Below are positions 119 to 62,239 of a stretch of DNA of 64,000 bases, piece after piece. The stretch is from a virus. The stretch lies in the IMG/VR virus record IMGVR_UViG_3300031722_000008, positions 1-64,000 of that record, one strand, 5' to 3'. Numbering within the stretch: position 1 is the stretch's first letter; every line of letters starts with the position of its first letter. Below the pieces are notes generated by a model. It had not been told where the DNA came from. It made no database searches and saw only the letters and a program-made list of their open reading frames with translations. The translations under genes were made by a program, and so were the position numbers.

Positions 119-309
119 TCTTCTGCTGCTAATTTTTGCTCTAATGTTAAATCACTTTCATTATCAGCATAACCTTCTATTTCTTGCGCTAATTTTTCAA
201 GAACCGCAGGATCTAAATTGCTTAATGTACTTTTAATGTTAGCATTTTCTGAGGCTTTCTTTTCAAAAAAACCACCCTCTATAAATTCACTATAAAAATT
301 ATTTGACAT
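1..309 (-). CDS. Partial acidic, repeat-rich protein following the prohead protease; putative scaffolding protein (runs off the window start)
   Basis: Manual translation from ATG at 309 (overlaps the protease stop, GGGAG upstream): MSNNFYSEFIEGGFFEKKASENANIK...LEKLAQEIE...EQKLAAEEDSEKDKEKDKEEKDKEEKESADDSEKDKEEK. No stop before base 1. Confidence 0.7.
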   Translation of the reverse strand, partial: MSNNFYSEFIEGGFFEKKASENANIKSTLSNLDPAVLEKLAQEIEGYADNESDLTLEQKLAAEEDSEKDKEKDKEEKDKEEKESADDSEKDKEEKDKEEKESA

Positions 310-2656
310 TTAACATTTCTCCCTTCTTTGTCTTGTTTATTTTATTTGTAGCTTTTTCGATACCTTTTCCTATACCTGCAAATATTAATCCATCAGCTAG
401 AAATCCTGGGATTGATCCTGCAAGTTGACCTTTTTTCGAATTGTTAAAAATAACATCACCTAGCATTGAATCTCCAATATCTCTAATGAAATTGCTTGCT
501 TGCTTTTCAATTTCTATTTTAAAGCAAGAACTTGCAGTTTTCAAGTACTCGTCCATATCTTGATATTTTAAATTTCCCTCAAGAAGTATATTCTCAGCAG
601 TATCTTCATTTCCGACACCAATTAGTACAGAGGCATATTTTATAATCGATATGTCTTTTTTTGAATAACCATTATCTTCCATAGCGCTATCGATGCTAGC
701 ATTTTTAAAAATATTATCATCGAAATCATCAGCTTGTTTTGGAATTTTTTTAGAAATATCTTTAATTAACTTTCCTGCTCCTTTCGAACCTTTATTTATT
801 GCTTTTATTCCTGCAGGTGTAACCATAGAATACAGGAATGCTGCATTTGTAGGGTTTTCAGCTATATACCTATTAAATGATGATGTCTGGTCTCCATTGT
901 TTATTCTGCTTCTTTGGAGTGCTGAATAAGAAAGTGTTAGTGGTATTCCAGCCATCAATGCTTTCATTGTACTTAACTTTGCAGTTTTTTCAAATCCAAA
1001 AGTATTATCATCTAAATAGTTTGCTATTTTCATTATACCATCATTTAACTCTCCGTTATTAGCTCTTTTAATTCTATCGTTTTGATATGCAGAATTAATC
1101 ATTGCTGACATAATAGCTGGAACAGTAAGGTCAGAGGCTTCTTCACTTGCTGCTTTAGTTAATATATTTGGTAGGAAATGATTTCTATTATTTTTTGGCT
1201 CTATTTCTCCTCTTGAAATCTTATCTAATCTAGGATATGCAAACTTTCTATGATTACTTCTAGATTCTAATAAGTGAGATACTATGCCATCCATGATGTC
1301 GTGGTTAAGGAAGTCACCATTGAAGCTTGTCTCTTGAGGTCTTGTTTTCATAATTACAAGTTTTATTTTAGCTGCTGGATGATTATTAAACATTCCATAT
1401 CCACTAGAATCACATTCACTTTTAATAGCATTTATCACATTCATAACATGACCTATTCCCATGTCCATGCCTAAATTTTCAGTTATAGAATTATTATTAC
1501 TAATAATAGATTTATCACCCAAACTACATGGAATCTGTCTTAAATCGTGACAATCCATATTCATGACTTCGAAAAAGATATCATGAATTTCGAGTGGAGA
1601 TAATTCTATAGCTGCAAAATCTAAAACTTTTAAAAATTGACTGAATACTTTTTCTGGAGGAACTTTATTCATCTGAGACAATTCTCTCAATTTCATTCCA
1701 ATATCTTGGCATTTAGCTTTATCCCAATATTCCGAGTAATTTAACTTCAATACATCGACTATATTTTCTAACATATTTAATCCATCTCTCGAAACTTCAT
1801 CACAAGCATTAGCTAATGCCTTATCTCTTATTTTGGTTTTTACTTTATCAACATCTTTAGGTGTTGATTTTTTATCCTCTTTAAAAGAAGAAGCTATCAC
1901 TTCCATATTTAATTCTTCATAAGGTTTTTCTGTTGCAACTTTAAATATATCCTCAATCTCAAGACTATCAATCATACTTGCTGTTTTCTCTAAACCTTTT
2001 CCTGATACAAATGCAACTTTACTTCCCTCGATAATTAGACCTTCAACTTTTGCAGTTCTTTCTGCTCCATTTAATACTGCAGATATATCGTGGAATTTAG
2101 GTCCTATATTGATTTCATAAACTTTCTTTCCATTGTCCATGACTTTACCTTTCATGGTCTTTAAATGCTCACAGTAATCAAATCTAGTTTTTGCAGCTTT
2201 ACCACAATAAGAACATACTACATGGTCTACTCTGCACCCCATAGATACATCGGTCATAAATCCTTTTTCGAAACCTCTAACTATTGATGGCGCTATTCTT
2301 CTATCTATCCTTATTAATAAATAGACAGACTTCATTTTATCTGACCAATCCGCCGTTAGTACATCACCTATGGCTTTTTCTATTAATTTATTTTCGTGAT
2401 TTTTAAATGTGTGAGCAGATAAGAATGTTTTATATCCTTTTAATAATTCTGTTTCAGGAAAATAATCATCATTCTTGTTACTGCCCCAATACTCTCCAGC
2501 ACTAACTGCTTTAACCTTAAGATATAAGTAATCAGGATCATAGGTAAAACCATCTGGTAATTTTACTGAGGCTGTTTTAATTAAGTCATTATCAATGACT
2601 TCAAAATCATTATTTTTAAAATCAATTAAAAATGTTGTGTGTTTGTTAAAAGACAT
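299..2656 (-). CDS. Prohead (capsid maturation) protease with long C-terminal extension
   Basis: N-terminal domain has NxNxDxF, NH, VSMGC (putative Ser nucleophile), a CSYCG...CEH Zn insertion and FHDISAV, typical of caudoviral prohead proteases. The extension has repeated KxA motifs. Confidence 0.75.
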   Translation of the reverse strand: MSFNKHTTFLIDFKNNDFEVIDNDLIKTASVKLPDGFTYDPDYLYLKVKAVSAGEYWGSNKNDDYFPETELLKGYKTFLSAHTFKNHENKLIEKAIGDVLTADWSDKMKSVYLLIRIDRRIAPSIVRGFEKGFMTDVSMGCRVDHVVCSYCGKAAKTRFDYCEHLKTMKGKVMDNGKKVYEINIGPKFHDISAVLNGAERTAKVEGLIIEGSKVAFVSGKGLEKTASMIDSLEIEDIFKVATEKPYEELNMEVIASSFKEDKKSTPKDVDKVKTKIRDKALANACDEVSRDGLNMLENIVDVLKLNYSEYWDKAKCQDIGMKLRELSQMNKVPPEKVFSQFLKVLDFAAIELSPLEIHDIFFEVMNMDCHDLRQIPCSLGDKSIISNNNSITENLGMDMGIGHVMNVINAIKSECDSSGYGMFNNHPAAKIKLVIMKTRPQETSFNGDFLNHDIMDGIVSHLLESRSNHRKFAYPRLDKISRGEIEPKNNRNHFLPNILTKAASEEASDLTVPAIMSAMINSAYQNDRIKRANNGELNDGIMKIANYLDDNTFGFEKTAKLSTMKALMAGIPLTLSYSALQRSRINNGDQTSSFNRYIAENPTNAAFLYSMVTPAGIKAINKGSKGAGKLIKDISKKIPKQADDFDDNIFKNASIDSAMEDNGYSKKDISIIKYASVLIGVGNEDTAENILLEGNLKYQDMDEYLKTASSCFKIEIEKQASNFIRDIGDSMLGDVIFNNSKKGQLAGSIPGFLADGLIFAGIGKGIEKATNKINKTKKGEMLNVK

Positions 2657-2740
2657 ATTGATATCTCTCCTCTCTTTTAATTACTGATTAAAGTATAGCA
2701 TTAATAAAATGGAACGACAATCTTCATGTTATTCCTATTA

Positions 2741-17856: not shown

Positions 17857-18276
17857 TTATTCTTTTACTAATTTTCCTAATACACCATGTTCTTTCACGA
17901 GTTCTTCATTACTAATTTCTTTAGCTCCCTCTATACTTATCTTTTCTGGGAACTTATTATAATCTTTCATGAGTTTCTTAGCTATACTGTTATCTCTTTT
18001 TTCTTTCAAGAAATTAAGTTTTTCAAGAAGAAAAATTTCTTGACCTTTAAGTATTGGTGTATTTGTTTTTGCCATTAATACCATTTGAGCAATCCCAGAA
18101 CCACCATCATCTTTGCCTGCTTCATCTGCATGACTAGATGCAAATTTTTCATAGAATTCTGCTTCGAGTTGAGTTGCAATTAATTCATCCCTAACTCTGT
18201 TTATATTTGCGTTTATTATCTTTTCTCTTGATGTTAGTTTAGGTGCTACATTTTTATTTTTTGTCAAAGTTATCAC
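17857..18276 (-). CDS. Hypothetical protein downstream of the RNAP gene
   Basis: 139-aa ORF. Confidence 0.65.
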   Translation of the reverse strand: MITLTKNKNVAPKLTSREKIINANINRVRDELIATQLEAEFYEKFASSHADEAGKDDGGSGIAQMVLMAKTNTPILKGQEIFLLEKLNFLKEKRDNSIAKKLMKDYNKFPEKISIEGAKEISNEELVKEHGVLGKLVKE

Positions 18277-25596: not shown

Positions 25597-25630
25597 ATTA
25601 AAAACGAGGGCATTGCCCTCGTTTTTAATT
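25597..25630. terminator. Bidirectional terminator after the portal gene
   Basis: aattaaaaacgagggc-att-gccctcgtttttaatt. Confidence 0.85.
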
Positions 25631-27501
25631 TAGCTTTCTCTTCTTGGTGGTTTTTGATTAGGTAATGGTCTCATGTCAATTTTATCTTTAGATTGTTTAG
25701 TTTGTTTAGTTTGCTCTAATTCAGCTAATCTCTTTTCTACCATGCCTTTAGCTTCCATTGGTATCTTGGATAAATATTGGGTTTGTTGTTCTTTAGGCAT
25801 TTTAATTAAGCTAAGAGCTATCCTGTTTACTTCTTTCTCAACATCACCATTGTTTTGTTGTCCCTCTTGAGGTTGTTGAGACTGCTTACTTTCCCCTGCT
25901 TGTTGATTAGTGGCTTGTTGTTCACCAGTTCCTCCAGATTGAGGAGCTTGTTGTTCTTCAGGATTAATATTAACTCCGTATTGCTGTGCAAGTTTTTGTT
26001 GCATTGCTTGTAATTTAAACTGCATTTCCATTTGTTTTATTTGGAGTTGTTCCTGTAGCTCCATAGATTCTATTTGCATTTTAATCTTCTCATTTTCGGC
26101 TTTCGTTTGAAGAAGTAGAGCATCCATAGTTTCCTTTTCGATGGCTTCTTTCATCTTATCAGAATCCATACCCATTGCTTTCCACATATAATCATTAGAA
26201 CATTTATTTGCACTATTCAACTGAATAATTAATTGTTTTTGTTGAACATCATCTTGCATTTTTAGGTCAGACATTTTTACTGAAAGTAATGCATCATCAT
26301 CTTCTTCTGATAACCATTCACCCCTGGCTTTTGCCATACCCCTAATTATAAAGTTTTGCATAAAATCTTCTAAAAGAAGTCTATATGTTATAAATTGATT
26401 TTCTAATATTCTAAGAGATATTGAACTTCCTGAATAACTTACTCCACCGAAAATAAATTCTTTAGGCATATTCATACCAGCTAAGATTTCAGATTGAACT
26501 TGGTCTATTTCAGGAGCAAGTAATAAACTTCTTCCTTCTCCACCAACATTTATAACATTAACTGGTACTGGAGATACAACTTTATAGTTAGGATCCCTAA
26601 CAGATTTTTTTATTTGGTCAGCTAAGTCCTGTGCTGTTTTATTCCAATCAGCTTGAATGTTAACAGTATTTGTTCTATCAAGATAATATATTCTCATTGG
26701 CACTATATGCTCTCTAGCGATAGCCTCTTGTGCTTGCCTAAGAACATTTCTGTACATCAATAGTTTTAGTACGTTTGCTACTACAGGAACTCCCCAGACG
26801 CTATTATCACCCATAGAATCGGTCGCTCTACTGAAATGATAAACATTATCAGGGTTTAGTATGATACTTTTATTTTTTCTAACAGCTTGTTTCATAAGTT
26901 CTGGTATTTTTTCATATTCAGCTTTCGGTTGTTTCTTTGTTACTATATCTCTTATTTTTTGAGGAATAGTCCATCGAAATGTCTTACTTCCTGTAGCTGG
27001 ATTATAATCTATAATCATTTTCGAAGGATCTAATCTAATCATATTAGTCCATTCTTTTTCACCCTTAGAGTTTCCTCCAAGCTCACCCATAACAAAGCAA
27101 TTTCCATATAAAAAGTAATCTATCCCTATCTCTATAAGTAATTTATGAAGATTAAGATTTTTAAATAAAACCTTCTCATAGAGTTTAACTGAATCTGATT
27201 TTTCTTTACTTTTATTTTCATCATCTTCTAGTGTAACTTCGGATACAGGGAATGTAGCTAACGCATTGATAGCTCCACTTATTAATGGATCAAATGTATA
27301 GTAATATTTACACCATTTAAATACATCTATAGTTGATTCAGGTAATTGCATATCAGAAAGATTTAAAAAAGGTGATGGATATGGATTTTGCATATTACCT
27401 CTGAATGAGGCTACCTTTTCTTGCGAACCTTCAATGGCTGCATTAAGTTCTTTCTCTAACATGGCTTTTTTATCTTTCTCATCTAAAAACCCTTTACTCA
27501 T
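25630..27501 (-). CDS. Putative portal protein with Gln-rich C-terminal extension
   Basis: DPLISGAIN, DYFLYGNCF, RLDP, NVYHF, WGVP, ILAGMNMP portal-like pattern; near terminase and protease. Confidence 0.75.
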   Translation of the reverse strand: MSKGFLDEKDKKAMLEKELNAAIEGSQEKVASFRGNMQNPYPSPFLNLSDMQLPESTIDVFKWCKYYYTFDPLISGAINALATFPVSEVTLEDDENKSKEKSDSVKLYEKVLFKNLNLHKLLIEIGIDYFLYGNCFVMGELGGNSKGEKEWTNMIRLDPSKMIIDYNPATGSKTFRWTIPQKIRDIVTKKQPKAEYEKIPELMKQAVRKNKSIILNPDNVYHFSRATDSMGDNSVWGVPVVANVLKLLMYRNVLRQAQEAIAREHIVPMRIYYLDRTNTVNIQADWNKTAQDLADQIKKSVRDPNYKVVSPVPVNVINVGGEGRSLLLAPEIDQVQSEILAGMNMPKEFIFGGVSYSGSSISLRILENQFITYRLLLEDFMQNFIIRGMAKARGEWLSEEDDDALLSVKMSDLKMQDDVQQKQLIIQLNSANKCSNDYMWKAMGMDSDKMKEAIEKETMDALLLQTKAENEKIKMQIESMELQEQLQIKQMEMQFKLQAMQQKLAQQYGVNINPEEQQAPQSGGTGEQQATNQQAGESKQSQQPQEGQQNNGDVEKEVNRIALSLIKMPKEQQTQYLSKIPMEAKGMVEKRLAELEQTKQTKQSKDKIDMRPLPNQKPPRRES

Positions 27502-35162: not shown

Positions 35163-36017
35163 CTACTCTTGCTGTTCTTGTTGTTTTTTTAATCTATGCT
35201 TCTTGAAATTTACTATATTTTCAGGAGTGGCAAAATAAGTAGGTAATGCTGCAACTTCTTGTGCGGCTGCCATAGGAGCTAATGCTGCTCCAACTTTAAG
35301 TGCGCGCTTTGCAACTCTAACTGAATTATCTCCCATTTTTTTACTTACCATTTTTTGGAATTCAGGATTACTTGCCGCATCTACTGTAGTTGCTTTATTT
35401 GATAGGTCTTTAAAATCTCTAGCAAATATCTTTCCACTGGCACCAACTCTTCCCAATGATTGTTCTAGGTTTTTACCTATTTCACCACGAATAGCCTTAC
35501 CTTTCTTTAATCCGTATAAACCTCCCCATAATGCTGCAACTGGTGCTGTGCTTGCGCCTATAGTTGCGGCGATACTTTTAGCATCAGGAGCTGTTCCAAA
35601 TTCTTCTTTGTGTTTTTTATATAATTGATAAGTAGGAATTGTTGCTCCTCCTGCGATATCACCAATTGCCATGCCTGCCATGCCACCATGAACCAAAGCT
35701 TTATTGAATGGCATCTTGCCTTTTTTCATAGCGAGAGCAGTACCAGCTATACCTCCAATTTTCATTGCAGTATCTTGTGCTTCGCCATTAACCATCCCTG
35801 TTGCAATACTCTTGCCTACTGTCTTTACACCACTTTTTATCTTAGCTTTACCTTCATCATTACTTAAAGCGTATGCGCTACCTAATGCTCCTGCACCTAC
35901 ACCTGTTCCTATTCCAACTTTTTTAATTAAACCTTTATTTTTGTTGAACATTTTAATTGCTTTTTCTTTTATGCTTGCAGTCTTTTCTATAGATTCAATA
36001 TAATATTCCTTATTCAT
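35163..36017 (-). CDS. EKxA-tagged glycine-zipper membrane-like protein
   Basis: MNKEYYIESIEKTA followed by several GxxxG hydrophobic segments. Confidence 0.75.
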   Translation of the reverse strand: MNKEYYIESIEKTASIKEKAIKMFNKNKGLIKKVGIGTGVGAGALGSAYALSNDEGKAKIKSGVKTVGKSIATGMVNGEAQDTAMKIGGIAGTALAMKKGKMPFNKALVHGGMAGMAIGDIAGGATIPTYQLYKKHKEEFGTAPDAKSIAATIGASTAPVAALWGGLYGLKKGKAIRGEIGKNLEQSLGRVGASGKIFARDFKDLSNKATTVDAASNPEFQKMVSKKMGDNSVRVAKRALKVGAALAPMAAAQEVAALPTYFATPENIVNFKKHRLKKQQEQQE

Positions 36018-36121
36018 AACAATTATCACCTCCATCAAATTTATTATATATCAATCAATAGATTGTAACAACTTATTGATGAAAGGCTAATAATTGTGTA
36101 TGATTAATTTGAGGTGATAAT

Positions 36122-36757: not shown

Positions 36758-36788
36758 AAGTGTGGCTCCAAGAGCCACACTTTTATTT
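36755..36788. terminator. Bidirectional terminator
   Basis: aaaagtgtggctc-caa-gagccacactttt. Confidence 0.85.
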
Positions 36789-38044
36789 TATCTTTCCTCG
36801 TCTTCATTGAAGTTTAATGCTATTTCATCTAAACCTTCAATTTCATCTAACTTTACATTGCCGTAATTTTCATCACCAGTTTGTTCAGCAACTCTTCTCT
36901 TATTTTCTTCAATAAGCTCTTCTTCTCTTTTTCCATATAATTGAAGAACCACTTCTTGAGAGTGTTTATCATTATTTCCACTTCTTCCCGACATAGCTCT
37001 GATTTCTTCCACCTTATCATGAGCGAAAGACATCATTTTAGCGGTTTTAAATAATGGGTCAACTACATCTCTATCCTTATCAGCATCCAATGAAACGAAT
37101 CGCTTGTATGCTTTACCTACAACATCAGCAAACATATCTTCGAAGCTTGCCTCATTCATTTCTGCTATATTAACTGCAGCATTTGTATACATCATATTCA
37201 AACCTTTTATGTTGTCTGATAATTCAGATACTCTTTTTTCGGTTTGATCGATAAGACTAACCCTGTCTCCCATACTTAATTCTTCGTAATCACCAATGCC
37301 ATCTTCCACATCTTTAAGTAATGTGTTCAAGGAATTTTTTTCAGTAACAAGAGAGTTTATTTTATCCTCGATTGTTTGAGTCTGTATATTAAAAAACATT
37401 GATTTATATAATTGGATATCCTGATCATAAACACTAAATTTTAATTGTTCTCTACAATATCTAGTTATTCTATCTGTAGGAACATTTTCCAATAAGAATT
37501 TATCTATTAGGTATCTTTTCTCAAATAACAATATTTTTTCAACAGCACCTTTTCCTCTAGTCGATGTTGATGATGTAAGTAATCTATTTCCTTTTTCATC
37601 AACAGGTAAATTAACTGCACTGCCATGGAATCTGTATATTTCTTGGCACCACATCTCATCTATATCTAGTGATTTTATTAATTTACAAAATTTAACTTGA
37701 CCATCTAAATCATCTCCTAAATCCAGTCTATAATTCAGGAGTTCTTTAGTATATGCACCTCTCTTTGATTTTGCTCTAAGAAGTTTATTTTTATAATCTG
37801 CATAAATATTCGCAAGTCCGAAATGTTTTATCAATGGATCCATAACAGCTAAATAATATAGTGTCAATGGTTTTTCGTGAGGTGCTGATAGTCCCAATTT
37901 TTGTAATTCTTTCTTTATAACTATTGGAGAATACCTTTTACTTAAAAGATATCTGATGTACTTAATGTGAGGCTTCTTCTCTATTCCTTCAATGGTTTGC
38001 CTATATTTAGGATCTAGTTTTTCAAAATCTATTTTTATACCCAC
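36788..38044 (-). CDS. Hypothetical coiled-coil protein (possible terminase small subunit)
   Basis: 418 aa, helical, acidic C-terminus, near terL; function is speculative. Confidence 0.6.
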   Translation of the reverse strand: MGIKIDFEKLDPKYRQTIEGIEKKPHIKYIRYLLSKRYSPIVIKKELQKLGLSAPHEKPLTLYYLAVMDPLIKHFGLANIYADYKNKLLRAKSKRGAYTKELLNYRLDLGDDLDGQVKFCKLIKSLDIDEMWCQEIYRFHGSAVNLPVDEKGNRLLTSSTSTRGKGAVEKILLFEKRYLIDKFLLENVPTDRITRYCREQLKFSVYDQDIQLYKSMFFNIQTQTIEDKINSLVTEKNSLNTLLKDVEDGIGDYEELSMGDRVSLIDQTEKRVSELSDNIKGLNMMYTNAAVNIAEMNEASFEDMFADVVGKAYKRFVSLDADKDRDVVDPLFKTAKMMSFAHDKVEEIRAMSGRSGNNDKHSQEVVLQLYGKREEELIEENKRRVAEQTGDENYGNVKLDEIEGLDEIALNFNEDEER

Positions 38045-38104: not shown

Positions 38105-39721
38105 CTAACTACTAAACTTATTTTTTATCTTTTGAATTAAACTTTCTTTTGGTCTCATTTTACGGTTATTTTCATCAAGTAAATTATATAGTAGTTGATT
38201 TTGTTTAGCCTTATTATCAGCTATTTCATAAATAACTTCATCAGGAGTCCTATATGGAGATTTAAATAAACCTAACGTTTTTGGCATAGTAGATAGATAC
38301 CTATTTACTTCGACCTTTCGTTCGCCCTCCGCCCGTTTCGATTGACCGAACGCTCTTATTCCTCTGGCTTCCATTTGCTTCATTCTTTCTGGATTATAGT
38401 GACCATCTAAGGCACCTTCCCATGTAGTATCTCCAAGAGATAATCCTTCTGCTCCTGCCCCACTTATAAGCATTACTCTTTTCTTTCTAGCATTATAATC
38501 ATTAACATCATTCTGTCTAGTTTCTTCTGTAACTCCTTTATTACCCTTACCTATAAACTTTCCATAACTTATTCCTCTATCCTTAAGTCCTGCTTCTAAT
38601 ACATCAGCTCCACCATTAATCATATTAGTTAGTAGTATTGCTTGACCATCAGGAGTTGTCTTTAAATGTTCTTGCATATCACTAAGCATCTTATCTGTTT
38701 TTGGTGATAGCCTTGAACTTTCTTTTAGTGATATTCCAGGAACTACTGAACCAACACTATTAACTAATTTTCTTGCTTCTATCATACGATTAAATGCTTT
38801 TGATATTTCATCATCTTTTAGGGTTTCTAATCTTTTTTGTTTTATTATTTCTCTTAGTTTAGGGTCATTCTTAATTAATTGCTTATAATATTTAGCTTGC
38901 TCTTTAGATAATGGAACTTTTTCGGTATGAGTTTCTTTAAGTGGAATCTTGGCCATAGGTCTAACATCATCAACGCTAGCATAGTCAACATATTTAGCTA
39001 AGTCACCTTGCAATCTTTTCTTATTGTTAAAACCAGTAACAGGAACTCTATTCTCCTTAAGTCCTTTATATTTAGGTGAAGTACTTCTCTTTAGATAATT
39101 CTTATCAAAATCTTTCGAAGTAGCACCTAGATGATGTTCGCCTTGTGAAGCTAAATCAACTAAATTGTACATATCAGGAATATGATTATTTACTATAGAG
39201 CCTGTTAATCCTATAAAATTCTTGTATTTATCTCTAGTGCTTTTGAAACTATCTAATGTCGCAGTATCATTATTTCTAAGCTTATGCATTTCATCAGCTA
39301 TGACTGTGTCAGCACCAGTATCCCTTAAGATAGCTTCAGGATTTTTCCTGAACATTTCATATGAAATTATATTATAGTCAGAATCTTTATTGGGTGCATG
39401 ACCTGTTCCTTTTGATATCTCACCCATATTACCCACAATATTATATTTACTGTCCGTAAATTTTTTTACACCATCATTTCCAAAATTATGTCTTAAACTT
39501 GCTGGAGTAACTACGAGTGCTTTGTTCGCTAAGCCTTTTTCTTTCATCTTTTCGAACTTAGCTATCGATGATAATGTTTTACCACTTCCAACATCGTGCG
39601 CAACAATCATACTGTTTGATGGATTATCAACTACACGTTTTTGAAACGGATTAAATTCTATATCATCATGAAGTTTTGCTTGTTTCTCTATTTGCTCTTT
39701 ATATTTATCTCTTTTCATCAC
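38105..39721 (-). CDS. SNF2-family (SF2) helicase/translocase with N-terminal EKQA tag
   Basis: HDVGSGKT, TPASL, ISYE, DEMH, LTGS, GAEGLSL, QMEARGIR; starts DKYKEQIEKQA. Confidence 0.88.
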   Translation of the reverse strand: MMKRDKYKEQIEKQAKLHDDIEFNPFQKRVVDNPSNSMIVAHDVGSGKTLSSIAKFEKMKEKGLANKALVVTPASLRHNFGNDGVKKFTDSKYNIVGNMGEISKGTGHAPNKDSDYNIISYEMFRKNPEAILRDTGADTVIADEMHKLRNNDTATLDSFKSTRDKYKNFIGLTGSIVNNHIPDMYNLVDLASQGEHHLGATSKDFDKNYLKRSTSPKYKGLKENRVPVTGFNNKKRLQGDLAKYVDYASVDDVRPMAKIPLKETHTEKVPLSKEQAKYYKQLIKNDPKLREIIKQKRLETLKDDEISKAFNRMIEARKLVNSVGSVVPGISLKESSRLSPKTDKMLSDMQEHLKTTPDGQAILLTNMINGGADVLEAGLKDRGISYGKFIGKGNKGVTEETRQNDVNDYNARKKRVMLISGAGAEGLSLGDTTWEGALDGHYNPERMKQMEARGIRAFGQSKRAEGERKVEVNRYLSTMPKTLGLFKSPYRTPDEVIYEIADNKAKQNQLLYNLLDENNRKMRPKESLIQKIKNKFSS

Positions 39722-40544
39722 TATGCCTCCTAAACTTACTTAATCCATAAGCTCCAAGTCCAATACCAGCTGTCCCGATTCCAATTCCAAGTGCAAGCTT
39801 TTTATTTATTCTTGATTTAGGTATATTTCTTATTTTATCTTTATATTTCTCTTTGTTTTTATAGCAATGATCAATTATTATTTTGTCATTATCTCTAGCT
39901 AGATAAGCTTGAAACGGTTTTTTCTGAACATAATCCATTCTTGATATTTCTAAGTCCTTTTTAAATTGATTACTCATATCCTTATTGACAGATATTTTTT
40001 TGCCATAATTTTTCAAACCATCATTTTTAGGATCTAATAGGCTTCTTGATAATTTCAATTTTTTAGGGAAAGATTTATTCTCGTAATATGGAGAGAATGC
40101 TCCCTCATTCATCATTTGAGCATCAAAACCATGAGTTCCCTTTACTATAGCATTTCTCTTCGAAACAGCATTATAGAGTTCTTTATCTCCCTTGCTTAAT
40201 TTTTTTACTCCTGAAAACTTATCAAATACATTTAACATTGCTTTCTCGGATTTACTCATGTTTGAGTTCTTGATATCAAAATCAGCAAGTGATTTTGGTG
40301 ATACTATATTTGTCTTACCACCCTTAGAATTTATTTGCTGAAATTCTTTATCATCCACAATATCATTCATATCCCATTTTTCTATTAAATTTTTATTCCC
40401 TAGTTCCACACCCTTTGCAATTTCGGAATTACTCTTTCCTACAGTTTTAATTAATTTATTTCGATTTTTATTTGATAACTCATGATATTTCTCTTTCCAT
40501 TTTGTTGCAGCTTGCTTTTCTATTTGCTCTTTATATCGATTCAA
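39705..40544 (-). CDS. EKQA-tagged basic protein with C-terminal transmembrane segment
   Basis: MNRYKEQIEKQA...LALGIGIGTAGIGLGAYGL. Confidence 0.75.
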   Translation of the reverse strand: MNRYKEQIEKQAATKWKEKYHELSNKNRNKLIKTVGKSNSEIAKGVELGNKNLIEKWDMNDIVDDKEFQQINSKGGKTNIVSPKSLADFDIKNSNMSKSEKAMLNVFDKFSGVKKLSKGDKELYNAVSKRNAIVKGTHGFDAQMMNEGAFSPYYENKSFPKKLKLSRSLLDPKNDGLKNYGKKISVNKDMSNQFKKDLEISRMDYVQKKPFQAYLARDNDKIIIDHCYKNKEKYKDKIRNIPKSRINKKLALGIGIGTAGIGLGAYGLSKFRRHSDEKR

Positions 40545-41223: not shown

Positions 41224-42018
41224 TTAATAGTTTAATGAATATCTTGCCTCATTTCTTATTCTATCTAAGTTTGGAGATACCTTATTTTGTGCGTGATTAA
41301 AGGCACCATTTTGATCCATCGCTACTCCAGTTAATCTTCCGAAACCTGCTCCAAGTCCTGCACCTAATCCTCCAGAAAGAACAACTTTCCCTAGTCTATT
41401 AGTTGTTCCTCCTGCCAATCCTAATCCTAATCCTGCTAATGCTCCAACTCCAGTTCCAATCTTAAGACCTGTCTTTTTTGCAGTTAAACTATCATATTTA
41501 TTTTGATATTCTTTAGAGCTGTAGACATTACTTATTGATGAATCTAACTCTTTATATTTATTTAAAGTATCTTCACTAACCCTTTTATTAGTCTTATGAG
41601 CAACTAATACTTTCATAATATCTTCATTCATACCATTAACTAAAGCTGATTGTATATCATTTCTGATATGAGGTTTCAGATCATCTTGAAGAGAATTTGG
41701 TAGTCTCCTATACCAAATAGAATTAGTTACATCACTCAAATGTTTATCGGTCTTTTCGCGTATAGATAAGGCTTCATTATTAGTCTTTTGGTGTTTTGCT
41801 TCGTTGCTTCTCGTCGGAGTGCTCGTCGCATATCTCGTCGCACTCCTTGTATGTTGATTAATATCGTTCTTATATTGTTCTTTAGTCTTTTTGAACTGAC
41901 CACTTCTAAATCCACTATCTGCTGATTGATTGGAATTACCTCCAAAATCTCCGCTTCTGTATTCGCCAGTTACTGCCTCTTTTTCAATTTGTTCTTTGTA
42001 ATTCATATTACAATACAC
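41224..42018 (-). CDS. EKEA-tagged protein with C-terminal glycine zipper
   Basis: MNYKEQIEKEA...GTGVGALAGLGLGLAG...GGLGAGLGAGFG. Confidence 0.75.
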   Translation of the reverse strand: MYCNMNYKEQIEKEAVTGEYRSGDFGGNSNQSADSGFRSGQFKKTKEQYKNDINQHTRSATRYATSTPTRSNEAKHQKTNNEALSIREKTDKHLSDVTNSIWYRRLPNSLQDDLKPHIRNDIQSALVNGMNEDIMKVLVAHKTNKRVSEDTLNKYKELDSSISNVYSSKEYQNKYDSLTAKKTGLKIGTGVGALAGLGLGLAGGTTNRLGKVVLSGGLGAGLGAGFGRLTGVAMDQNGAFNHAQNKVSPNLDRIRNEARYSLNY

Positions 42019-43591
42019 CTTCCTCTTCGCCCATATTCGTTTTAAAAATTTTTGAACTTAAGTCATTAAACTTATCTCTTGCAGGCTGTAACTTATTTGA
42101 AATTGCCCTAATCTTATTCTTGGTATCACTTGCTATCATTGATGCCCTTGGCTTTGCAACCTGTAGTCCGTTTCTTATTCCTTCTTTAGCAATATCCAAA
42201 TCTCTTTGTGACATCGCTAAAAGTGGAAAGGGTGCATCAAAAAGAGTATCGAAAGCATTGTCCTTAACTATTTTAGTTACTTTTTGAACAACTGGAGATT
42301 CTCTTAATTTTTTTCCATACATTTTTCCTCCAGCAAATATTGCTTGTTTTTCTATTTCCTCTATATAGTATTCCTTAGATTTCTTCTCAAAGTTAGAAGA
42401 TTTTTTTCCTTTAAGCTGATTCATAATATGGCTTTCTGATACTTTAAATAGTTTTAATCCATATTCCTTTGCCATATCCTTAAAACTATTAAATTGTTCT
42501 TCAAAGACTATGTGTATATCTTTATTTGTAGTTATGCTCTCAATATCATTCTTATATCTTAGAGGCTTAAAATCACCTTTTATTTTGTACATCGAACAAG
42601 GTTTGTTTATATCTACATCACTAGTATATTTTAATACTGTGCCTGTGTAGTTGCTTTCCGTAGGAACTTTACTATCCTTAGTCAGTACATTGAATCTAGC
42701 AGTACCATCATTCCACTTTAATCCAAAAGCAGCAGAGAAAGAAGGATATTTAGACGCGAATAAAACATCTCCTTTGTTGTTTCCTGATGTATCTTCTGAT
42801 AATCTAAATTTCTTTATTCCTTGAACTGGTGAAGCATGATAATAAACATTTTCTCCAGCTTCTTTTTCAATACTATTATCATTATCCTCGCTAGCTGTGC
42901 TTTTGATGAAAGAAAACTTTCCTATAGCACCTTTTAATGTTGGTGCAGTAGCACATGCTCTATGAGTGTAGCAGAAGTATATAGTTTCTCCACTAGGCAT
43001 AAATGCTTTCGATATACCTAATTCTCCATTATTATACCAAACCGCCTTACCCTCTCTTACTATTTTCTTTTCATCAGAAGTTAAAGGTATTTGATATTTT
43101 TTAAGATCTTTCATTTTGTATCTTTTCTCGGCTACTTTATCAAATCCACTAAGTATCTCATTTGCTTTTTGTTCAATAAGTTCTTCTATGCTTTTTTCTG
43201 CTCCACCTGTGTATTTACCATAATATACAGGAACTTCTTTGATTCCTTTAAATTCGCAAGCTTCCTTTCTATGATGTCCATCAAGCAAAATAGAATGACC
43301 TTTTGTTTGAGGGGTAATTCCTTGGAATTTATCTACCACCATGAAAGGATTAATATTTCCAGGCTTTATAGTTTCTGCAATATTAAACACCTTTTCTTTA
43401 TTTACAGGTTTATCGATACCTTGTAGTTTATCTATCTTCATCATTTTCTTTTGCCATTTATAATTCTTTACAAGTTTTATTGCACCATCTTCATTAGGTG
43501 TCTTGTATTCATGGGAAGTAGCAATCATATAAGCTACTTCTCTATCAATGGAACCTTTCAGAAATGCCCTATCTATCTTCTCTAATTTCAT
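42008..43591 (-). CDS. Multidomain KxA-punctuated protein: ParB/Srx-like domain, small domain, putative ADP-ribosyltransferase-like domain, tail
   Basis: ILLDGHHR (ParB-N); YYHASP...LFAS (ART-like); linkers EQKA/FDKVA, IEKEA, YYIEEIEKQA. Confidence 0.65.
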   Translation of the reverse strand: MKLEKIDRAFLKGSIDREVAYMIATSHEYKTPNEDGAIKLVKNYKWQKKMMKIDKLQGIDKPVNKEKVFNIAETIKPGNINPFMVVDKFQGITPQTKGHSILLDGHHRKEACEFKGIKEVPVYYGKYTGGAEKSIEELIEQKANEILSGFDKVAEKRYKMKDLKKYQIPLTSDEKKIVREGKAVWYNNGELGISKAFMPSGETIYFCYTHRACATAPTLKGAIGKFSFIKSTASEDNDNSIEKEAGENVYYHASPVQGIKKFRLSEDTSGNNKGDVLFASKYPSFSAAFGLKWNDGTARFNVLTKDSKVPTESNYTGTVLKYTSDVDINKPCSMYKIKGDFKPLRYKNDIESITTNKDIHIVFEEQFNSFKDMAKEYGLKLFKVSESHIMNQLKGKKSSNFEKKSKEYYIEEIEKQAIFAGGKMYGKKLRESPVVQKVTKIVKDNAFDTLFDAPFPLLAMSQRDLDIAKEGIRNGLQVAKPRASMIASDTKNKIRAISNKLQPARDKFNDLSSKIFKTNMGEEEGVL

Positions 43592-43611: not shown

Positions 43612-44082
<471 letters not shown>

Positions 44083-44159
44083 TAATTTTCCTCCTATCAT
44101 ATAATTATCATAGGTTCATTATAACTTAATTTATTATTTTTTAAAAATAATAATAAATG

Positions 44160-44973: not shown

Positions 44974-45654
44974 TTAATAGAAACTATTTATTTCATTTTT
45001 TCCTCTTTCAATATCATCATATAATCTACTTCTGTCATGATCAACATCATGAAGATCATCTCTTCTCTCTTGTGGCGCTTCTTTAGGCATTACACCACAC
45101 ATTGCTCCACATTGAGGGCATCTACCATCCTCACTATCAGGCTTTCCTGCATAGCCACATTGTTCACAATTAATATCACCCATATACCCCGAAAGCTTTA
45201 GTAGTGCTTGTTTCTCTATTTTATTTTTATAGTATTCTTTTTTTTCATCTTCTTCTGTTACGGAATTTACCATTCTTCTTTTCTCATCTTCATTTGGACT
45301 TTCTTGAACTTCCTTTTCCTCATCAGTCATCTTATTATCTTCGTCATGAGGAATTTCCATATCTGCTTTTTTGAATACCCCAAGAGCAGCAGAACCTAAT
45401 TTCTTAGCGGCACTAACACCTGGACCTGCTGCTAATCCACCAAGAGCTAATCCACCCATAACTCCACCAGCTATATTTCCAGCCTTTTCATCCGGAGAAG
45501 CACCAGGATTAGCTTCATTAGCTGATACACCCTTCATTGAGCCGATTCCAGCCCCAAGCAATGCTCCGCCAGTTGTTCTACCTAGAAATTTACCTACTTG
45601 AGCAAATCCAGCAGTTTTAAGTATTTCTTCACTTAAATTATTTATTTCATTCAT
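44974..45654 (-). CDS. KxA-punctuated protein: glycine zipper, acidic linker, zinc ribbon
   Basis: ILKTA, FKKA, YYKNKIEKQA; CEQC...CPQC. Confidence 0.75.
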   Translation of the reverse strand: MNEINNLSEEILKTAGFAQVGKFLGRTTGGALLGAGIGSMKGVSANEANPGASPDEKAGNIAGGVMGGLALGGLAAGPGVSAAKKLGSAALGVFKKADMEIPHDEDNKMTDEEKEVQESPNEDEKRRMVNSVTEEDEKKEYYKNKIEKQALLKLSGYMGDINCEQCGYAGKPDSEDGRCPQCGAMCGVMPKEAPQERRDDLHDVDHDRSRLYDDIERGKNEINSFY

Positions 45655-51222: not shown

Positions 51223-51229
51223 ATATGTA

Positions 51230-53327: not shown

Positions 53328-54263
53328 TTATTTTCCTGCAATTTTTTCAAAACATTCTTCGATGATTTCATTTGCTTCTTTGTGATGAGGATTTTTTGTC
53401 TTTTTGAAAGAATCAGCTAACAGTTTTCCCCCTATAGCTATTGGGATTGCTCCTAATCCTACATGTCCAAGACCTTTAGCAAAATGTTTAGGGTTTTCCT
53501 TTATGAACCGACCAATACCTTTTAATGTTTGTTTCTCATAACCCTTTCCACCCTTTACATATTTTGATGCTATATCTCCTTGAATAACATCTGTTTGTGG
53601 ACCTAACTGATTAAATCCACTTCTAGCTACATTCATAGGAATTTTTTGACCCATATACATGATATTGCCATCCACTTTCTTTTGAAGAATTTTTTGAAAT
53701 TCTTTAGCATTCTTAGCTCCCATTAATTCTGGATTGTCTACTTTATGCATACCCTTATAATCCTTAACAGGAATATTAACTTTTAGTGTTTCTTGAGTTT
53801 TCTTTGCACCAAAAAGATCTGGCATAAGTCTTCCGTTATCAATTTGATCTCTTCTCATTCCTATTCCATCAGCTACACCTTTCTTTTTCGCCATATAAGT
53901 TTTACCTGCTTGTTCTTCTTTTCCTATACCTGCTGCCATAGAAGTTAGGTTATCAGGGTCCATAGCTTTATTTGATAATATTCCATGTTCTTTGATTCCA
54001 CTAACATTATCTTTCTTCGTATTGTGATATCTTCTAACTACACCATCTAGCATTCCTTCTTGCCTTGCCTTATTTATAACGTTTGCTCCGACTGCTCCAC
54101 CAACAATTCCTGCTCCACCCTTAGCAACTTTTTTATTATGTTCTTTTTCAGCATAGTCGAGATCTTTATTTGAAATTTCATCTACAGAAACTCCCCACTT
54201 TTTCGCAAGTTGTTTTTTTGTATATTCTACTGCTGTTTTTTCTATTTGATTTCTATAATTCAT
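53328..54263 (-). CDS. EKTA-tagged protein with putative ADP-ribosyltransferase-fold domain flanked by hydrophobic segments
   Basis: MNYRNQIEKTA; RRYHNT....V.GI.EHGI...TYM (ART/KptA-like); C-terminal KEANEIIEECFEKIA. Confidence 0.65.
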   Translation of the reverse strand: MNYRNQIEKTAVEYTKKQLAKKWGVSVDEISNKDLDYAEKEHNKKVAKGGAGIVGGAVGANVINKARQEGMLDGVVRRYHNTKKDNVSGIKEHGILSNKAMDPDNLTSMAAGIGKEEQAGKTYMAKKKGVADGIGMRRDQIDNGRLMPDLFGAKKTQETLKVNIPVKDYKGMHKVDNPELMGAKNAKEFQKILQKKVDGNIMYMGQKIPMNVARSGFNQLGPQTDVIQGDIASKYVKGGKGYEKQTLKGIGRFIKENPKHFAKGLGHVGLGAIPIAIGGKLLADSFKKTKNPHHKEANEIIEECFEKIAGK

Positions 54264-54293
54264 ATATTCTCCTCCTAATGTTTTATATTTATA

Positions 54294-54308
54294 GTATAAG
54301 ATATTAAA
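54294..54308 (+). promoter_or_regulatory. GTATAAGATATTAAA motif
   Basis: Exact copy. Confidence 0.8.
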
Positions 54309-54333
54309 CAAGATATAGAAAGAGGTGAAATTA

Positions 54334-54483
54334 ATGAAAAACAAAACAGTAGCAATAGTATTGGGATTAGGAATACTAGGAATAGTAGCATACAGAAAAA
54401 TAGAAGGAGTGATGTTTCAGAAATACTATTTAATCGCACAAGGCGAAGAAATAAGTAAATATAGAGATTCAATAAAGAAATAA
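54334..54483 (+). CDS. 49-aa single-pass membrane protein
   Basis: Manual ORF MKNKTVAIVLGLGILGIVAYRKIEG...; GAGGTG RBS; terminator follows. Confidence 0.7.
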   Translation: MKNKTVAIVLGLGILGIVAYRKIEGVMFQKYYLIAQGEEISKYRDSIKK

Positions 54484-54506: not shown

Positions 54507-55697
54507 TTATTTCTTTTCAATTATGTCATTAACTATATCCATAGCTGTTTTTGCTAAAGCTTTTTTTGTAGATATAACACCTGCTCCATGAGTTAAGTTA
54601 TTTTTCTTACCTCTTTCAGCTTCTTCATTTTTTACAATTGTAGCTTTAGAAAGTTTATGATCTAATCCTTTTTCAGCTTCTTCTTTTCTTACACTTTCAG
54701 CTTTGCCAAGCTTATGATTTAATCCATGATGTTCTTCTTCCTTTTTCGTGATAGTAGCTTTCGCAATTGGAGAAGTTACACTTCTTGCAGCTTCTTCTTT
54801 TTTTGTGATTTCAGCTTTAGGTACTGGCGATTTCAAGCCTCTTTCTCTTTCTTCATTTAGTGTAATTGTAGCTTGAGCGATTTTTTCAAAAGTATCACTA
54901 ACTACAGTGCTTGCTTCTTTTTCAGCTAATGCTCTTCTTCTTTTCTTTTGAATTACAGCTTCTGGTGTTGTTCCAAGACTTGCTGCTAATCCTACTAATC
55001 CCATACCAGGAGCATGTTGACTTAATCCACTAGCAGCATAATTAGCAGCACCACCTAATTGTGTTTTTAAGTGCTCTTCCTTGCCTGCTTTTCCTCCGAT
55101 ATATTTTTCATGCAACTTATTAGTATCGTGAGCCCTAAATGCTGCATTTGCTCCAGCACTACCTATCCCCAATACTCCTAATTGCTTTGCACTTAACTGA
55201 CCCATATTTCCTTTACTATGAGAATGCGCCATCATTGCTATTCCAACAGGTAACATTGCTCCGAAAGTTTTAAAGCCTCTTCCGAATTCTGGAGCAATTC
55301 TATCTCTCCACATTCTAGTTTCAGTATCATCATCTCTATCTCTTGCAATTTTTTCGAATTGATCTTCGATTATATCGCTAGCCGTTTTTTGTTTTTTACT
55401 TCCAGCAGCATATCCTGCTCCAGTTGCACCTGCAAGACTTGCTGCACCTACTCCAGTAGCCACCCTTGCGTTCTTTGTCGCAGAACTTGTACTGTCAGCT
55501 TTAGCTTTAGCTTTATCAGCTATATCGCTTATTCTTTGCATGTGAGCTCCTTGATTAGATAAATTTTTGCTTCCATTTGCTGGATCAGTAAGTCTTGTTG
55601 ATGCTTTATCTAATGCTCCCTCTGCTTTATTGAGCGCTCCTTTTGCCTTTTTCAATGTCTTTCCTGTGATTAAATTTTTGTATTCGTTGAAACCCAT
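54507..55697 (-). CDS. KxA-punctuated putative virion polyprotein with hydrophobic modules and ~19-aa repeats
   Basis: KTASDIIEDQFEKIA, EKEASTVVSDTFEKIA, KTAMDIVNDIIEKK; repeats like KATITKKEEE.RGL. Confidence 0.75.
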   Translation of the reverse strand: MGFNEYKNLITGKTLKKAKGALNKAEGALDKASTRLTDPANGSKNLSNQGAHMQRISDIADKAKAKADSTSSATKNARVATGVGAASLAGATGAGYAAGSKKQKTASDIIEDQFEKIARDRDDDTETRMWRDRIAPEFGRGFKTFGAMLPVGIAMMAHSHSKGNMGQLSAKQLGVLGIGSAGANAAFRAHDTNKLHEKYIGGKAGKEEHLKTQLGGAANYAASGLSQHAPGMGLVGLAASLGTTPEAVIQKKRRRALAEKEASTVVSDTFEKIAQATITLNEERERGLKSPVPKAEITKKEEAARSVTSPIAKATITKKEEEHHGLNHKLGKAESVRKEEAEKGLDHKLSKATIVKNEEAERGKKNNLTHGAGVISTKKALAKTAMDIVNDIIEKK

Positions 55698-60847: not shown

Positions 60848-60875
60848 TAAAAGAAATCTAGATGGGGGTAATGGT

Positions 60876-61061
60876 ATGAGAATAATTGTAGGTATGATAA
60901 CAGGGTTAGGAGTAACAGCAGGAATAGTATCAGAGAGAGAAGATGTAAAATTAATAAATAAAGTACAGAAGATAGAGCCAATAAGTGAATCTCAAAGAAC
61001 AGCATATGATGATAAGTTTCAGAGATTATTAGATAGAAGCAAGAGAAATGTAGGGTTGTAA
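60876..61061 (+). CDS. Small membrane-anchored protein
   Basis: IIVGMITGLGVTAGIV; purine-rich. Confidence 0.65.
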   Translation: MRIIVGMITGLGVTAGIVSEREDVKLINKVQKIEPISESQRTAYDDKFQRLLDRSKRNVGL

Positions 61062-61092
61062 AAATAGAGGTGGCTTAGCCACCTCTATTTTT
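61061..61092. terminator. Bidirectional terminator
   Basis: aaaatagaggtggc-tta-gccacctctatttt. Confidence 0.85.
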
Positions 61093-62239
61093 ACCTTTTC
61101 TTTTTTTGTTCATCAAGCATTGATTTTGTTTTCATTCCTGTATTATATTGCATATGAGAAGATGATGCATTCAATGCTCCCCCAGCTACTCCTGTTCCTA
61201 GAGTAGTTAATGCGGTAAGCGCTCTTTCTCCACCTTCTGATACTTTCTTTCCACCGTAATAGTTTTTAGAAAGGTCCTCACCTACATCTTGCAATTTAGA
61301 ATTTATATCTCTAACTCTTTTACCTGAATCAGCCATACCTTTCATGTGATTTAATGCTTCTTCCTGTTCTTTCTTTGATAACCTCTTGCCCTTTTTAGCT
61401 GCATTAAATAGTTGTTCGGCTTTATCTACGCCACCCATTGTTTTATTAGATTCCCTCATTAAATCGCCACCAAGTCCTTGGAATTCGGATAGCTTACCTA
61501 GTGATTTAGTGTATTTCATTACTCTTTTTGGATTAAAGGAATCCATACTTCCTTTTGCCATATTCATAAGATTATGTGATAACCCTGGCATTTTCTTTCT
61601 TACTGCAAGTGCTGCTGCCCCTGTCATTGCTGCTGGCATTAATGCGCCTGTTGCTGCTCCACTAATAAATCCACTGGCGTCTCCTACAGCTTTATGAATC
61701 TTATGATGCTTTTCATTTTGCAGAGAGTTTCTAAATGTACTAACTCCTGTTGGGTCAAACCCCGATACAAAATCTTTCATATATGATGATTCTGCTAATT
61801 TTTCACAAGCTATCTTTTCTATTTGTTCTTTATAATTCATATTTGCCTCCTTATTCATCCAATTATTAAATTTACCTATTTGCTCAATCAAGTGTTTCGG
61901 ATTACCATCAAAGCATACTGCATTATCATCGACATACATTATTGCTGGTGGTTTTTCTTTTGCCACCCCATCTACTTTAATATCATATTTTTCTAGCCAT
62001 TTTTTAATAGCATCTATCCCACCTTTTTGGAAACATCTGGTAGATACAACAACGATTTTATAATCTTGCCTTAATTTATCTATAGCTTCTTTTATTCCCT
62101 CTACTGGTTTATCAGGTATATTGGTTGTTCCTTTCCAACCACTAATATAGGAGTGAATCACTCCGTCAAAATCAAACACTATGGTTTTTTTAGCGCTTGC
62201 TATTTTTTCTATTAATTTCTTATAATTCAACATCATCAA
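61091..62239 (-). CDS. Two-module KxA-tagged protein: HAD-family phosphatase plus hydrophobic module
   Basis: NYKKLIEKIA, then FDFDGV...STR...KP..YVDD (HAD), then KEANMNYKEQIEKIACEKLA, then Gly/Ala-rich helices. Confidence 0.8.
   Translation of the reverse strand: MMMLNYKKLIEKIASAKKTIVFDFDGVIHSYISGWKGTTNIPDKPVEGIKEAIDKLRQDYKIVVVSTRCFQKGGIDAIKKWLEKYDIKVDGVAKEKPPAIMYVDDNAVCFDGNPKHLIEQIGKFNNWMNKEANMNYKEQIEKIACEKLAESSYMKDFVSGFDPTGVSTFRNSLQNEKHHKIHKAVGDASGFISGAATGALMPAAMTGAAALAVRKKMPGLSHNLMNMAKGSMDSFNPKRVMKYTKSLGKLSEFQGLGGDLMRESNKTMGGVDKAEQLFNAAKKGKRLSKKEQEEALNHMKGMADSGKRVRDINSKLQDVGEDLSKNYYGGKKVSEGGERALTALTTLGTGVAGGALNASSSHMQYNTGMKTKSMLDEQKKKR

Follow-up and report, generated by a model that had tools for sequence, protein, structure and literature searches.

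The combination of a head protease, a targeting peptide, and a variable set of injected proteins is already known from bacteriophage T4 (PMC9026906), in which the internal proteins IPI-III and Alt carry a 10-residue N-terminal capsid-targeting sequence (CTS) (PMC9026906; Mullaney and Black 1996 cited there), and phiKZ and SPN3US provide examples of ejection proteins that undergo processing (PMC10052503). In phage P1, the 250-kDa DarB protein has an N-terminal capsid-targeting signal of 30 residues (PMC9024508). Here, we analyzed 64,000 nucleotides (hereafter, the window) of the IMG/VR virus record IMGVR_UViG_3300031722_000008, in which a short motif ending in Lys-x-Ala (K-x-A) recurs in the head proteins and in a series of enzymes and other proteins of a large phage. 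We read this motif as the cutting site of the phage head protease, and the longer leader that ends in it as a CTS-like peptide on swappable head cargo. Judged from sequence comparison and from the analogy with the above systems, this whole reading would have a probability of roughly 0.6.

The window covers bases 14-64013 of the 79,987-base record, which is half of a 160,540-base contig, and its guanine-plus-cytosine (GC) content is about 31%. It represents the part of an uncultured contractile-tailed phage (about 160 kb, with Clostridia-like bacteria as the probable hosts) that encodes head and cargo proteins, and its minus strand carries a head/virion module including a protease-like gene, an RNA polymerase (RNAP), the portal, the large terminase (TerL), an SNF2 helicase, and a WYL protein. 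No close DNA-level relative of the window was found among cultured phages, and TerL was at most 31% identical to the TerL of Bacillus phages. The protease had more than 300 metagenomic homologs, many on contigs of 150-175 kb, and some of these contigs had labels of the MAG (metagenome-assembled genome) type, namely Clostridia, Paraclostridium, Herbinix, and Anaerovoracaceae. Four complete relatives found via the protease alignment were compared whole (G001, 166.8 kb; G002, 152.6 kb; G003, 168.2 kb; G004, 174.2 kb), the window phage being designated G000. In G001-G004, the protease gene is followed by scaffold-like open reading frames (ORFs), the major head protein (phrog_2522, 5.1e-24), and the tail sheath. 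The portal protein used alone as the query over viral contigs returned nothing.

In the 80 kb of the record, EK.A (the dot stands for any residue) occurs 49 times against 11.7 expected from per-protein shuffles (z 10.8) and K.AS occurs 35 times against 9.4, whereas the reversed word A.KE is not enriched (8 against 11.7). The EK.A excess was likewise observed in the four complete relatives (z 4.9-7.9). Furthermore, at every locus with a full-length protease homolog (GC 30-47%), 8-15 copies were present on the protease strand against about 2 expected. In head genes of more distant protease relatives, the enriched words were M.K.A (10 against about 1, including a locus at 63% GC) and KR.A (23 against 1.5), with SKRTA/S appearing sixteen times in one protein (the slash marks the predicted cut, here and below). 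The E, K, and A codons of the motif copies vary synonymously, indicating that the signal lies at the protein level and is not a DNA element.

The initial annotation had described the motif as EKxA and as confined to minus-strand genes. The strand bias itself was evident: EK.A occurs 47 times on the minus strand of the 80 kb, against 6.2 expected, and twice on the plus strand, and [IVLF]EK.A in the window ORFs occurs 25 times on the minus strand and once on the plus strand, with about 1 expected on each. Strand is nevertheless ruled out as the determinant, since the minus-strand RNAP, TerL, and a 418-amino acid (aa) ORF have no site, nor do the tail sheath and other tail genes of the relatives in the same operon. 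The motif instead follows protein class, i.e., head or cargo membership. Enrichment of EKxA was thus borne out, but the definition proved too narrow. Sequence comparison indicates a core of hydrophobic-x-K-x-A, often followed by S, G, or A, in which the Glu is dispensable: at conserved sites, V, S, Y, or L takes the place of Glu at P4, and K and A are the invariant positions. Such a site is present in the portal of all five genomes (the window phage and 4/4 relatives) with K and A fixed and P4 variable, as QEKVA/SF, MVKIA/NF, MVKIA/SF, MSKFA/SF, and MVKVA/HP. In the capsid protein of G001 (phrog_2522, as above), GGLEKIA lies at residues 30-36 and the family match starts at residue 43.

Among phages sharing only 30-60% identity, the sites keep their positions in the portal, the protease-scaffold fusion, and further head proteins. 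Since the sites bracket the protease domain, adjoin the portal N-terminus, precede the capsid fold in G001, and abound in scaffold-like proteins, the motif most likely represents the cutting site of the head protease. The cut is expected to fall after the Ala, because conservation begins at the hydrophobic residue five positions upstream of the cut and extends to the small residue immediately downstream, because many proteins of the relatives start with M-D-K-V-A, which leaves exactly five residues ahead of the Ala, and because the herpesvirus enzymes, which are related, cleave behind Ala and frequently in front of Ser (YLQA-T and VQA-S; PMC4498786), the specificity here being read from the motif. 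Sites ending in K-x-A do not follow the x-x-Glu rule of T4, which is (L/I)-x-E, or of phiKZ and SPN3US, which is S/A-x-E or A-x-E (PMC10052503, PMC5694885). Lys at P3 and Ala at P1 distinguish them from the T4 sites, and Lys at P3 also from the herpesvirus sites, which have a hydrophobic residue or Gln there. Based on the motif, we filed K-x-A as a separate specificity group within the gp21 fold, outside the T4 rule; no description of a Lys-x-Ala specificity of head proteases was found in the literature searched.

The expected protease is the product of 299..2656. In its AlphaFold2 (AF2) model, residues 37-196 form a beta-rich domain and residues 263-785 are helical. The domain was closest to T4 gp21 (5jbl_A), with Z 9.4 (VIA) and a root-mean-square deviation of 3.0 over 125 residues, clearly above the next entries; herpesvirus proteases gave Z 5.3-7.5, including varicella-zoster virus (VZV) at 7.5 and herpes simplex virus 1 (HSV-1) at 6.4. 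The model identifies the product as a predicted head-maturation serine protease of the T4 gp21/herpesvirus-assemblin fold. In 43 homologs (33-60% identical), H87 (KNH87E) and S138 (DVS138MG) were invariant. When paired by eye, they resemble LNH85P and GVS140SRG of T4 gp21, in which we take H85 and S140 to be the catalytic residues. H87 and S138 are therefore likely the catalytic His and Ser, judging from sequence. At the sites within the fusion (Table 1), K27, A29, K224, A226, and A559 were invariant and K557 and S227 were at least 90% conserved in the same alignment, in which the columns beside the sites were rich in insertions and deletions. Three of the four sites (at 28, 223, and 556) fall within residues 1-30, 206-262, and 551-561, stretches that had a predicted local distance difference test (pLDDT) value below 50 in the model and that set the beta-rich domain apart from the helical region. 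The gp21-fold domain also contains a Cys-x-x-Cys...Cys-x-His insertion (C148, C151, C162, and H164; residues 148-164, nt 2164-2215, minus strand), invariant in the 43 homologs and absent from T4 gp21, which is possibly a zinc ribbon.

The protease thus shares with that of T4 the fold and the presence of sites in the protease itself, and differs in the Cys/His insertion and in being fused to a helical region of 560 residues. In the latter respect it resembles herpesvirus UL26 (PMC4498786), in which a protease of related fold is N-terminal to a scaffold part; the release site (here after 226) and the site near the C-terminus (here after 720) would correspond to the R and M sites. The herpesviruses belong to another virus group with other hosts, and the sites here are far more numerous and lie in many non-structural substrates. 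A cultured counterpart was Bacillus phage G. Its gp19 shares 39.6% identity with the protease domain and has VKTA/A, LEKVA/S, and LLKIA/S at the corresponding places. The motif also occurs in gp7 and the portal gp14 of phage G, and EK.A occurs 9 times against 3 in the neighbouring head proteins. Phage G differs in its 498-kb genome and in that gp19 (300 aa) lacks the long scaffold fusion. No published cleavage data were found for phage G, and the multi-omics paper gives no cleavage sites.

The second element is the leader. All eight N-terminal leader peptides reported in the initial annotation were located, at genes 35163, 38105, 39705, 41224, 43612, 47718, 53328, and 61091. The internal copies in 42008, 44974, 54507, and 61091 were also confirmed, and the protease, the portal, and the scaffold-like ORFs contain additional ones. 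Nine window proteins begin with the long site form Y-K-E-x-I-E-K-x-A. Its general form, (M-D-K-V-A-x)-Y-K-E-x-I-[E/Y]-K-x-A, is a short amphipathic peptide found at N-termini, at joints, and at one C-terminus. The leader of G001-G003, M-D-K-V-A-x-Y-K-E-x-I-Y-K-x-A, corresponds to two sites around a short amphipathic stretch, and this double-site form is also present in the window, at joints and at one C-terminus. Thus, the 53328 protein ends with KEA/NEIIEECFEKIA/GK-stop (FEKIA, nt 53337-53351), the two junctions of the 54507 protein are KTA/SDIIEDQFEKIA/R (FEKIA, nt 55344-55358) and KEA/STVVSDTFEKIA/Q (FEKIA, nt 54876-54890), and the junction of the 61091 protein is KEA/NMNYKEQIEKIA/C (nt 61808-61834). 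Y...h.K.A (h, hydrophobic) occurs 14 times in the 80 kb against 1.5 expected, 16 times in G001, 22 times in G002, and 8 times in G003, the expectation over these genomes being 1.5-3.5. One of the 14 is a chance match in the tRNA region: YKGAVLKTA is encoded by a 74-aa ORF (51000-51224, minus strand) inside the tRNA cluster, which is almost certainly no gene, and is not a leader. A variant leader with a few extra residues, Y-K-N-L-I-[TN]-G-K-[TS]-L-K-[KE]-A, was observed at the N-termini of the products of 54507-55697 and of genome positions 64471-64794 (both minus strand).

The tagged carriers, about a dozen, share no other similarity. They include SNF2, WYL, HAD-type, and glycine-zipper proteins and unknowns, and most of them matched nothing in Pfam or PHROGs. 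The earlier assignments of the SNF2 and WYL modules were both upheld above the Pfam cut-offs, with 79.8 bits for PF00176 (cut-off 24.9; 2.4e-22) and 26.7 bits for PF00271 (cut-off 23.5) in the former and 23.9 bits for PF13280 (cut-off 21.8) in the latter. Module 1 of the 61091 protein has the HAD motif FDFDGVIH and matched phrog_1238 (7.4e-15) and, weakly, polynucleotide-kinase phrogs; PF18143 gave 18 bits, below the cut-off of 27.5, and some homologs have a precomputed PF18143 match. The 44974 protein weakly matched phrog_342 (internal virion protein, 0.0036), and residues 246-417 of the 42008 protein resembled DUF6886-like clusters only (Atlas query). ADP-ribosyltransferase (ART)-like and ParB-like domains had also been proposed but could not be recovered, as 41224, 42008, 53328, and 54507 gave no Pfam or PHROG match at E ≤0.01.

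We then compared tagged modules between genomes. In 115 of 118 SNF2 homologs (51-87% identical), K at -3 and A at -1 precede the core; in 79 of these 115 the tag is N-terminal, and in the other 36 it lies behind fused modules, the fusion partners including WYL, the 42008 module, and a PARP-domain module. Most sites in about 40 fused SNF2 homologs were located at module joints. WYL, a separate tagged gene in the window, is fused upstream of SNF2 in G001, G002, and several metagenomic homologs. An 882-aa protein of G001 consists of the 61091 HAD module, two 42008 modules, and the 53328 module, with the leader at three joints, and both 61091 modules occur in other polyproteins of G001 and G002. 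The earlier proposal of interchangeable polyprotein modules therefore held: the relatives combine HAD, WYL, SNF2, and unknown modules in varying order, always with the tag as the joint. In the HAD family, 114 of the 116 homologs found lack K-x-A within 6 residues of the core, 97 of them starting within a few residues of the catalytic FDFDG; the tag was present in the window protein and, at an internal junction, in P0247 and P0251. From the SNF2, module-order, and HAD comparisons, the tag appears to be portable. No counterpart of 35163, 39705, 41224, 43612, or 54507 was found in the four relatives. P0217, a metagenomic SNF2 homolog (758 aa), has a PARP-type module (PF00644) in front of the SNF2 core, bounded by a site at residue 8 and a joint at 243; because of this module, ADP-ribosyltransferase-type cargo exists in the clade, although it was not confirmed in the window.

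The tag resembles the T4 CTS in being an N-terminal peptide of about 10 residues on unrelated proteins that ends in the protease motif, with aromatic or hydrophobic positions upstream of the cut, and in that the cargo set varies between relatives, as for the T4 internal proteins. Unlike in T4, the tag also joins polyprotein modules, sometimes as a double site flanking a short helix, and the putative cargo includes a clade-conserved SNF2 helicase. With phiKZ gp175 and SPN3US gp245 (PMC10052503, PMC5694885) there would be in common many processed head proteins, redundant sites per propeptide, a trimmed portal and capsid protein, and a large mass of ejected proteins (inner-body or ejection proteins), whereas neither a shared N-terminal leader on enzymes nor shuffled enzyme polyproteins are described there. 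In the P1 Dar system, as is proposed here, a large nucleic-acid enzyme is loaded into the head by a short N-terminal signal, presumably to act on entry. The description of that signal mentions neither a protease site nor its occurrence on many proteins (PMC9024508), and the sequences are unrelated. What differs here is the predicted Lys-x-Ala specificity with a herpesvirus-like protease-scaffold layout, the tag as the joint in shuffled enzyme polyproteins, and the clade-wide tagged SNF2.

Based on these results, we propose the following pathway. Inside the procapsid, the protease would cleave hydrophobic-x-Lys-x-Ala behind its Ala, the next residue usually being Ser, Gly, or Ala. It would free itself from its scaffold part near residues 29, 226, 559, and 720, trim the portal and, in the relatives, the capsid protein, and dice the scaffold-like proteins. 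The leader would dock cargo in the assembling head core, as do the T4 CTS and the P1 DarB signal; the protease would then strip the leaders and separate the modules, and the free enzymes would remain in the head and exit with the DNA. The glycine-zipper proteins (43612 and 44974) would fit ejection proteins, and SNF2, WYL, and HAD would fit early-acting enzymes. The initial annotation had assigned to the motif a combined function in targeting and proteolysis. The latter part is strongly supported by the sequence comparisons, and roles in targeting to the capsid and in injection, as well as a use as a portable tag for packaging, are suggested by analogy. More tentatively, and with a chance that we would place somewhat below even, the short amphipathic peptide that K-x-A terminates, and often also precedes, may be a portable, self-removing capsid-docking tag, usable at the N-terminus, internally, or at the C-terminus, and read by a widespread, undescribed class of the gp21 fold that cuts behind Ala like the herpesvirus assemblins, by which a clade of Firmicutes phages would inject an SNF2 translocase and fast-changing enzymes.

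Several observations weigh against the proposed tag and protease. The characterized proteases of this fold, those of T4, phiKZ, and SPN3US, cut after Glu (PMC9026906, PMC10052503, PMC5694885), a rule from which Lys-x-Ala would depart. An hhalign profile comparison with T4 gp21 was not significant, the catalytic residues being paired by eye only, and the protease profile had no relevant match among PDB sequences; the fold comparison is the only tie between the protease and T4 gp21. In the head region of mycobacteriophage Myrna, which has a related protease domain, there was no clear [KR].A enrichment, so that the K-x-A signal would be a property of a protease subgroup. Furthermore, the available sequence amounts to 79,987 of about 160,540 bases and does not include the capsid gene.

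The main competing explanation is that the motif is a cleavage site only, the Tyr leader being an extended subsite preference and head entry being decided by the folded modules or by other partners. We consider it unlikely, though clearly the strongest of the alternatives. The Tyr-containing leader is not universal, many SNF2 homologs having minimal leaders of 8 residues such as MYGLAKLA only; G004 shows no excess of Y...h.K.A despite enrichment of K.AS and h.K.A; and Tyr is absent from the sites of structural proteins. The Tyr extension may accordingly reflect what the protease of a given lineage prefers as substrate, and not a signal for targeting. However, a mere subsite preference would hardly account for the same leader of 9-15 residues on about ten unrelated proteins per genome in G000-G003, for its recurrence at joints and once at a C-terminus, or for its addition to a HAD family whose members are otherwise nearly all untagged, and N-terminal peptides of this kind suffice for packaging in T4 and P1.

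It is improbable that the tagged enzymes remain unpackaged and are turned on or off late by cleavage in the cytoplasm or at the prohead. T4 gp21 can indeed act on a non-virion substrate, the CBASS CD-NTase loop. However, the sites are common to the portal, scaffold, capsid protein, and protease, all of which come together within the procapsid; moreover, modules of the glycine-zipper and internal-virion-like types resemble ejection proteins, and the untagged RNAP and TerL show no need of such control. Equally improbable is docking without cleavage, in which the K-x-A peptides, as short linear motifs, would be held permanently by a partner in the scaffold or portal: sites flank the protease domain on both sides and occupy disordered linkers whose adjoining modules are separate genes elsewhere, the residue after the Ala is small, as it is where proteases cut (see K.AS above), and the positions on the portal and capsid protein are propeptide-like. 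Finally, an artefact of Glu/Lys/Ala-rich helix composition, paralog ancestry, or a DNA element is very hard to credit even though several carriers are helical and Lys/Glu-rich, since the per-protein shuffles and the reversed word rule out composition or helix bias, the synonymous variation of the codons is incompatible with a promoter or repeat beneath the leader, the carriers have no other mutual similarity, and the positions are conserved across genomes of 30-47% GC and in distant relatives of up to 63%.

The other head-module proteins are listed in Table 1 together with the cargo and the untagged controls. Homologs of the 1..309 ORF in the relatives (200-260 aa) contain 3-6 sites each, and homologs of the 31150..31656 protein in G001-G003 start with the same leader. 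Outside the window, a 1082-aa protein (L001:5582-8830, minus strand; genome 69582-72830) has 11 EK.A and no family match; several of its sites are conserved in the G001-G004 homologs (796-1173 aa), and it is probably a diced scaffold or internal-body-like protein. Among the controls, the RNAP had fewer K.A than the shuffle expectation in all five genomes (9/14.9, 6/14.8, 7/12.8, 6/12.5, and 10/14.8), which would fit site avoidance by a virion polymerase sharing the procapsid, these being five homologous and not independent proteins. The 418-aa protein is conserved in 4/4 relatives (29-50% identical).

Table 1 Positions of the protease, its sites, head-module proteins, tagged proteins, and untagged controls. 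Positions are those of the window unless a relative is named; nt, nucleotide positions; slash, predicted cut.
Feature	Position	Strand	Remarks
785-aa protease-scaffold fusion	299..2656	-	phrog_18299 head maturation protease, 9.8e-10
LIKTA/S	residues 25-29, nt 2570-2584	-	conserved site in protease fusion
LEKTA/S	residues 222-226, nt 1979-1993	-	conserved site in protease fusion
FEKTA	residues 555-559, nt 980-994	-	conserved site in protease fusion
IEKQA/S	residues 716-720, nt 497-511	-	conserved site in protease fusion
Start of scaffold-like ORF, continuing beyond window edge	1..309	-	sites FFEKKA/S and VLEKLA/Q; downstream of protease
139-aa protein	17857..18276	-	one site FYEKFA/S, residues 41-46
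Portal	25630..27501	-	phrog_16240, 1.6e-21; N-terminal QEKVA/SF, residues 27-31, nt 27409-27423
639-aa conserved head-module protein	27505..29424	-	four sites, P1 at 185, 220, 248, 354; each 4/4 relatives
484-aa head-module protein	29689..31143	-	five sites
168-aa scaffold-like protein	31150..31656	-	N-terminal leader YSEMVEKLA, nt 31609-31635, and four further sites
362-aa head-module protein	32418..33506	-	six sites; residue-148 site conserved 4/4
291-aa cargo candidate	35163..36038	-	leader YIESIEKTA/S, nt 35976-36002; no Pfam/PHROG match
SNF2-family helicase, 538 aa	38105..39721	-	leader YKEQIEKQA/K, nt 39677-39703, directly before core
279-aa cargo candidate	39705..40544	-	leader YKEQIEKQA/A, nt 40509-40535
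264-aa cargo candidate	41224..42018	-	leader YKEQIEKEA/V, nt 41974-42000
527-aa multi-module protein	42008..43591	-	SIEKEA/G, nt 42857-42871; YIEEIEKQA/I, nt 42341-42367
162-aa glycine-zipper protein	43612..44100	-	leader YKQEIEKQA/G, nt 44041-44067
226-aa protein	44974..45654	-	N-terminal ILKTA/G before glycine-zipper; internal leader YKNKIEKQA/L, nt 45205-45231
WYL-domain protein, 120 aa	47718..48080	-	leader YKDYIEKQA/Q, nt 47979-48005
338-aa cargo candidate	53328..54344	-	leader YRNQIEKTA/V, nt 54231-54257
396-aa three-module protein	54507..55697	-	two two-site junctions
382-aa two-module protein	61091..62239	-	leader YKKLIEKIA/S, nt 62198-62224; HAD-type module, junction, second module
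Untagged control: fused beta/beta'-like RNAP, 2328 aa	18354..25340	-	no site
Untagged control: TerL	33522..35153	-	no site
418-aa protein by terminase	36788..38044	-	no site; no Pfam/PHROG match
Untagged WYL paralogs	G001 36386-36628; G002 96343-96597; G003 71101-71361; G004 86249-86581		

Two further features were observed. Within the head module of each relative, a small untagged WYL paralog (80-110 aa) separates the homolog of the 484-aa protein from that of the 639-aa protein; no ORF of at least 80 aa was seen in the corresponding interval of the window (29425-29688). At the start of the record (bases 1-104; the window begins at base 14), the first 50 bases repeat at offset 54, forming a short tandem repeat.

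If the proposed tag and protease are correct, the head cargo and the exact mature protein ends of a large uncultured phage group of Gram-positive anaerobes would be predictable from sequence, a prediction that would cover about twenty window proteins and the clade-conserved SNF2 helicase. A Lys-x-Ala class would be added to the head proteases of the T4 fold, assemblin-like in site and layout, which would bear on the question of a shared origin. The results would also suggest a route to injected effectors, in which a common enzyme gains a tag of 10-15 residues or is spliced into a polyprotein at the tag. Since the cultured relative phage G carries the same signal, the idea would be testable by ordinary virion proteomics.

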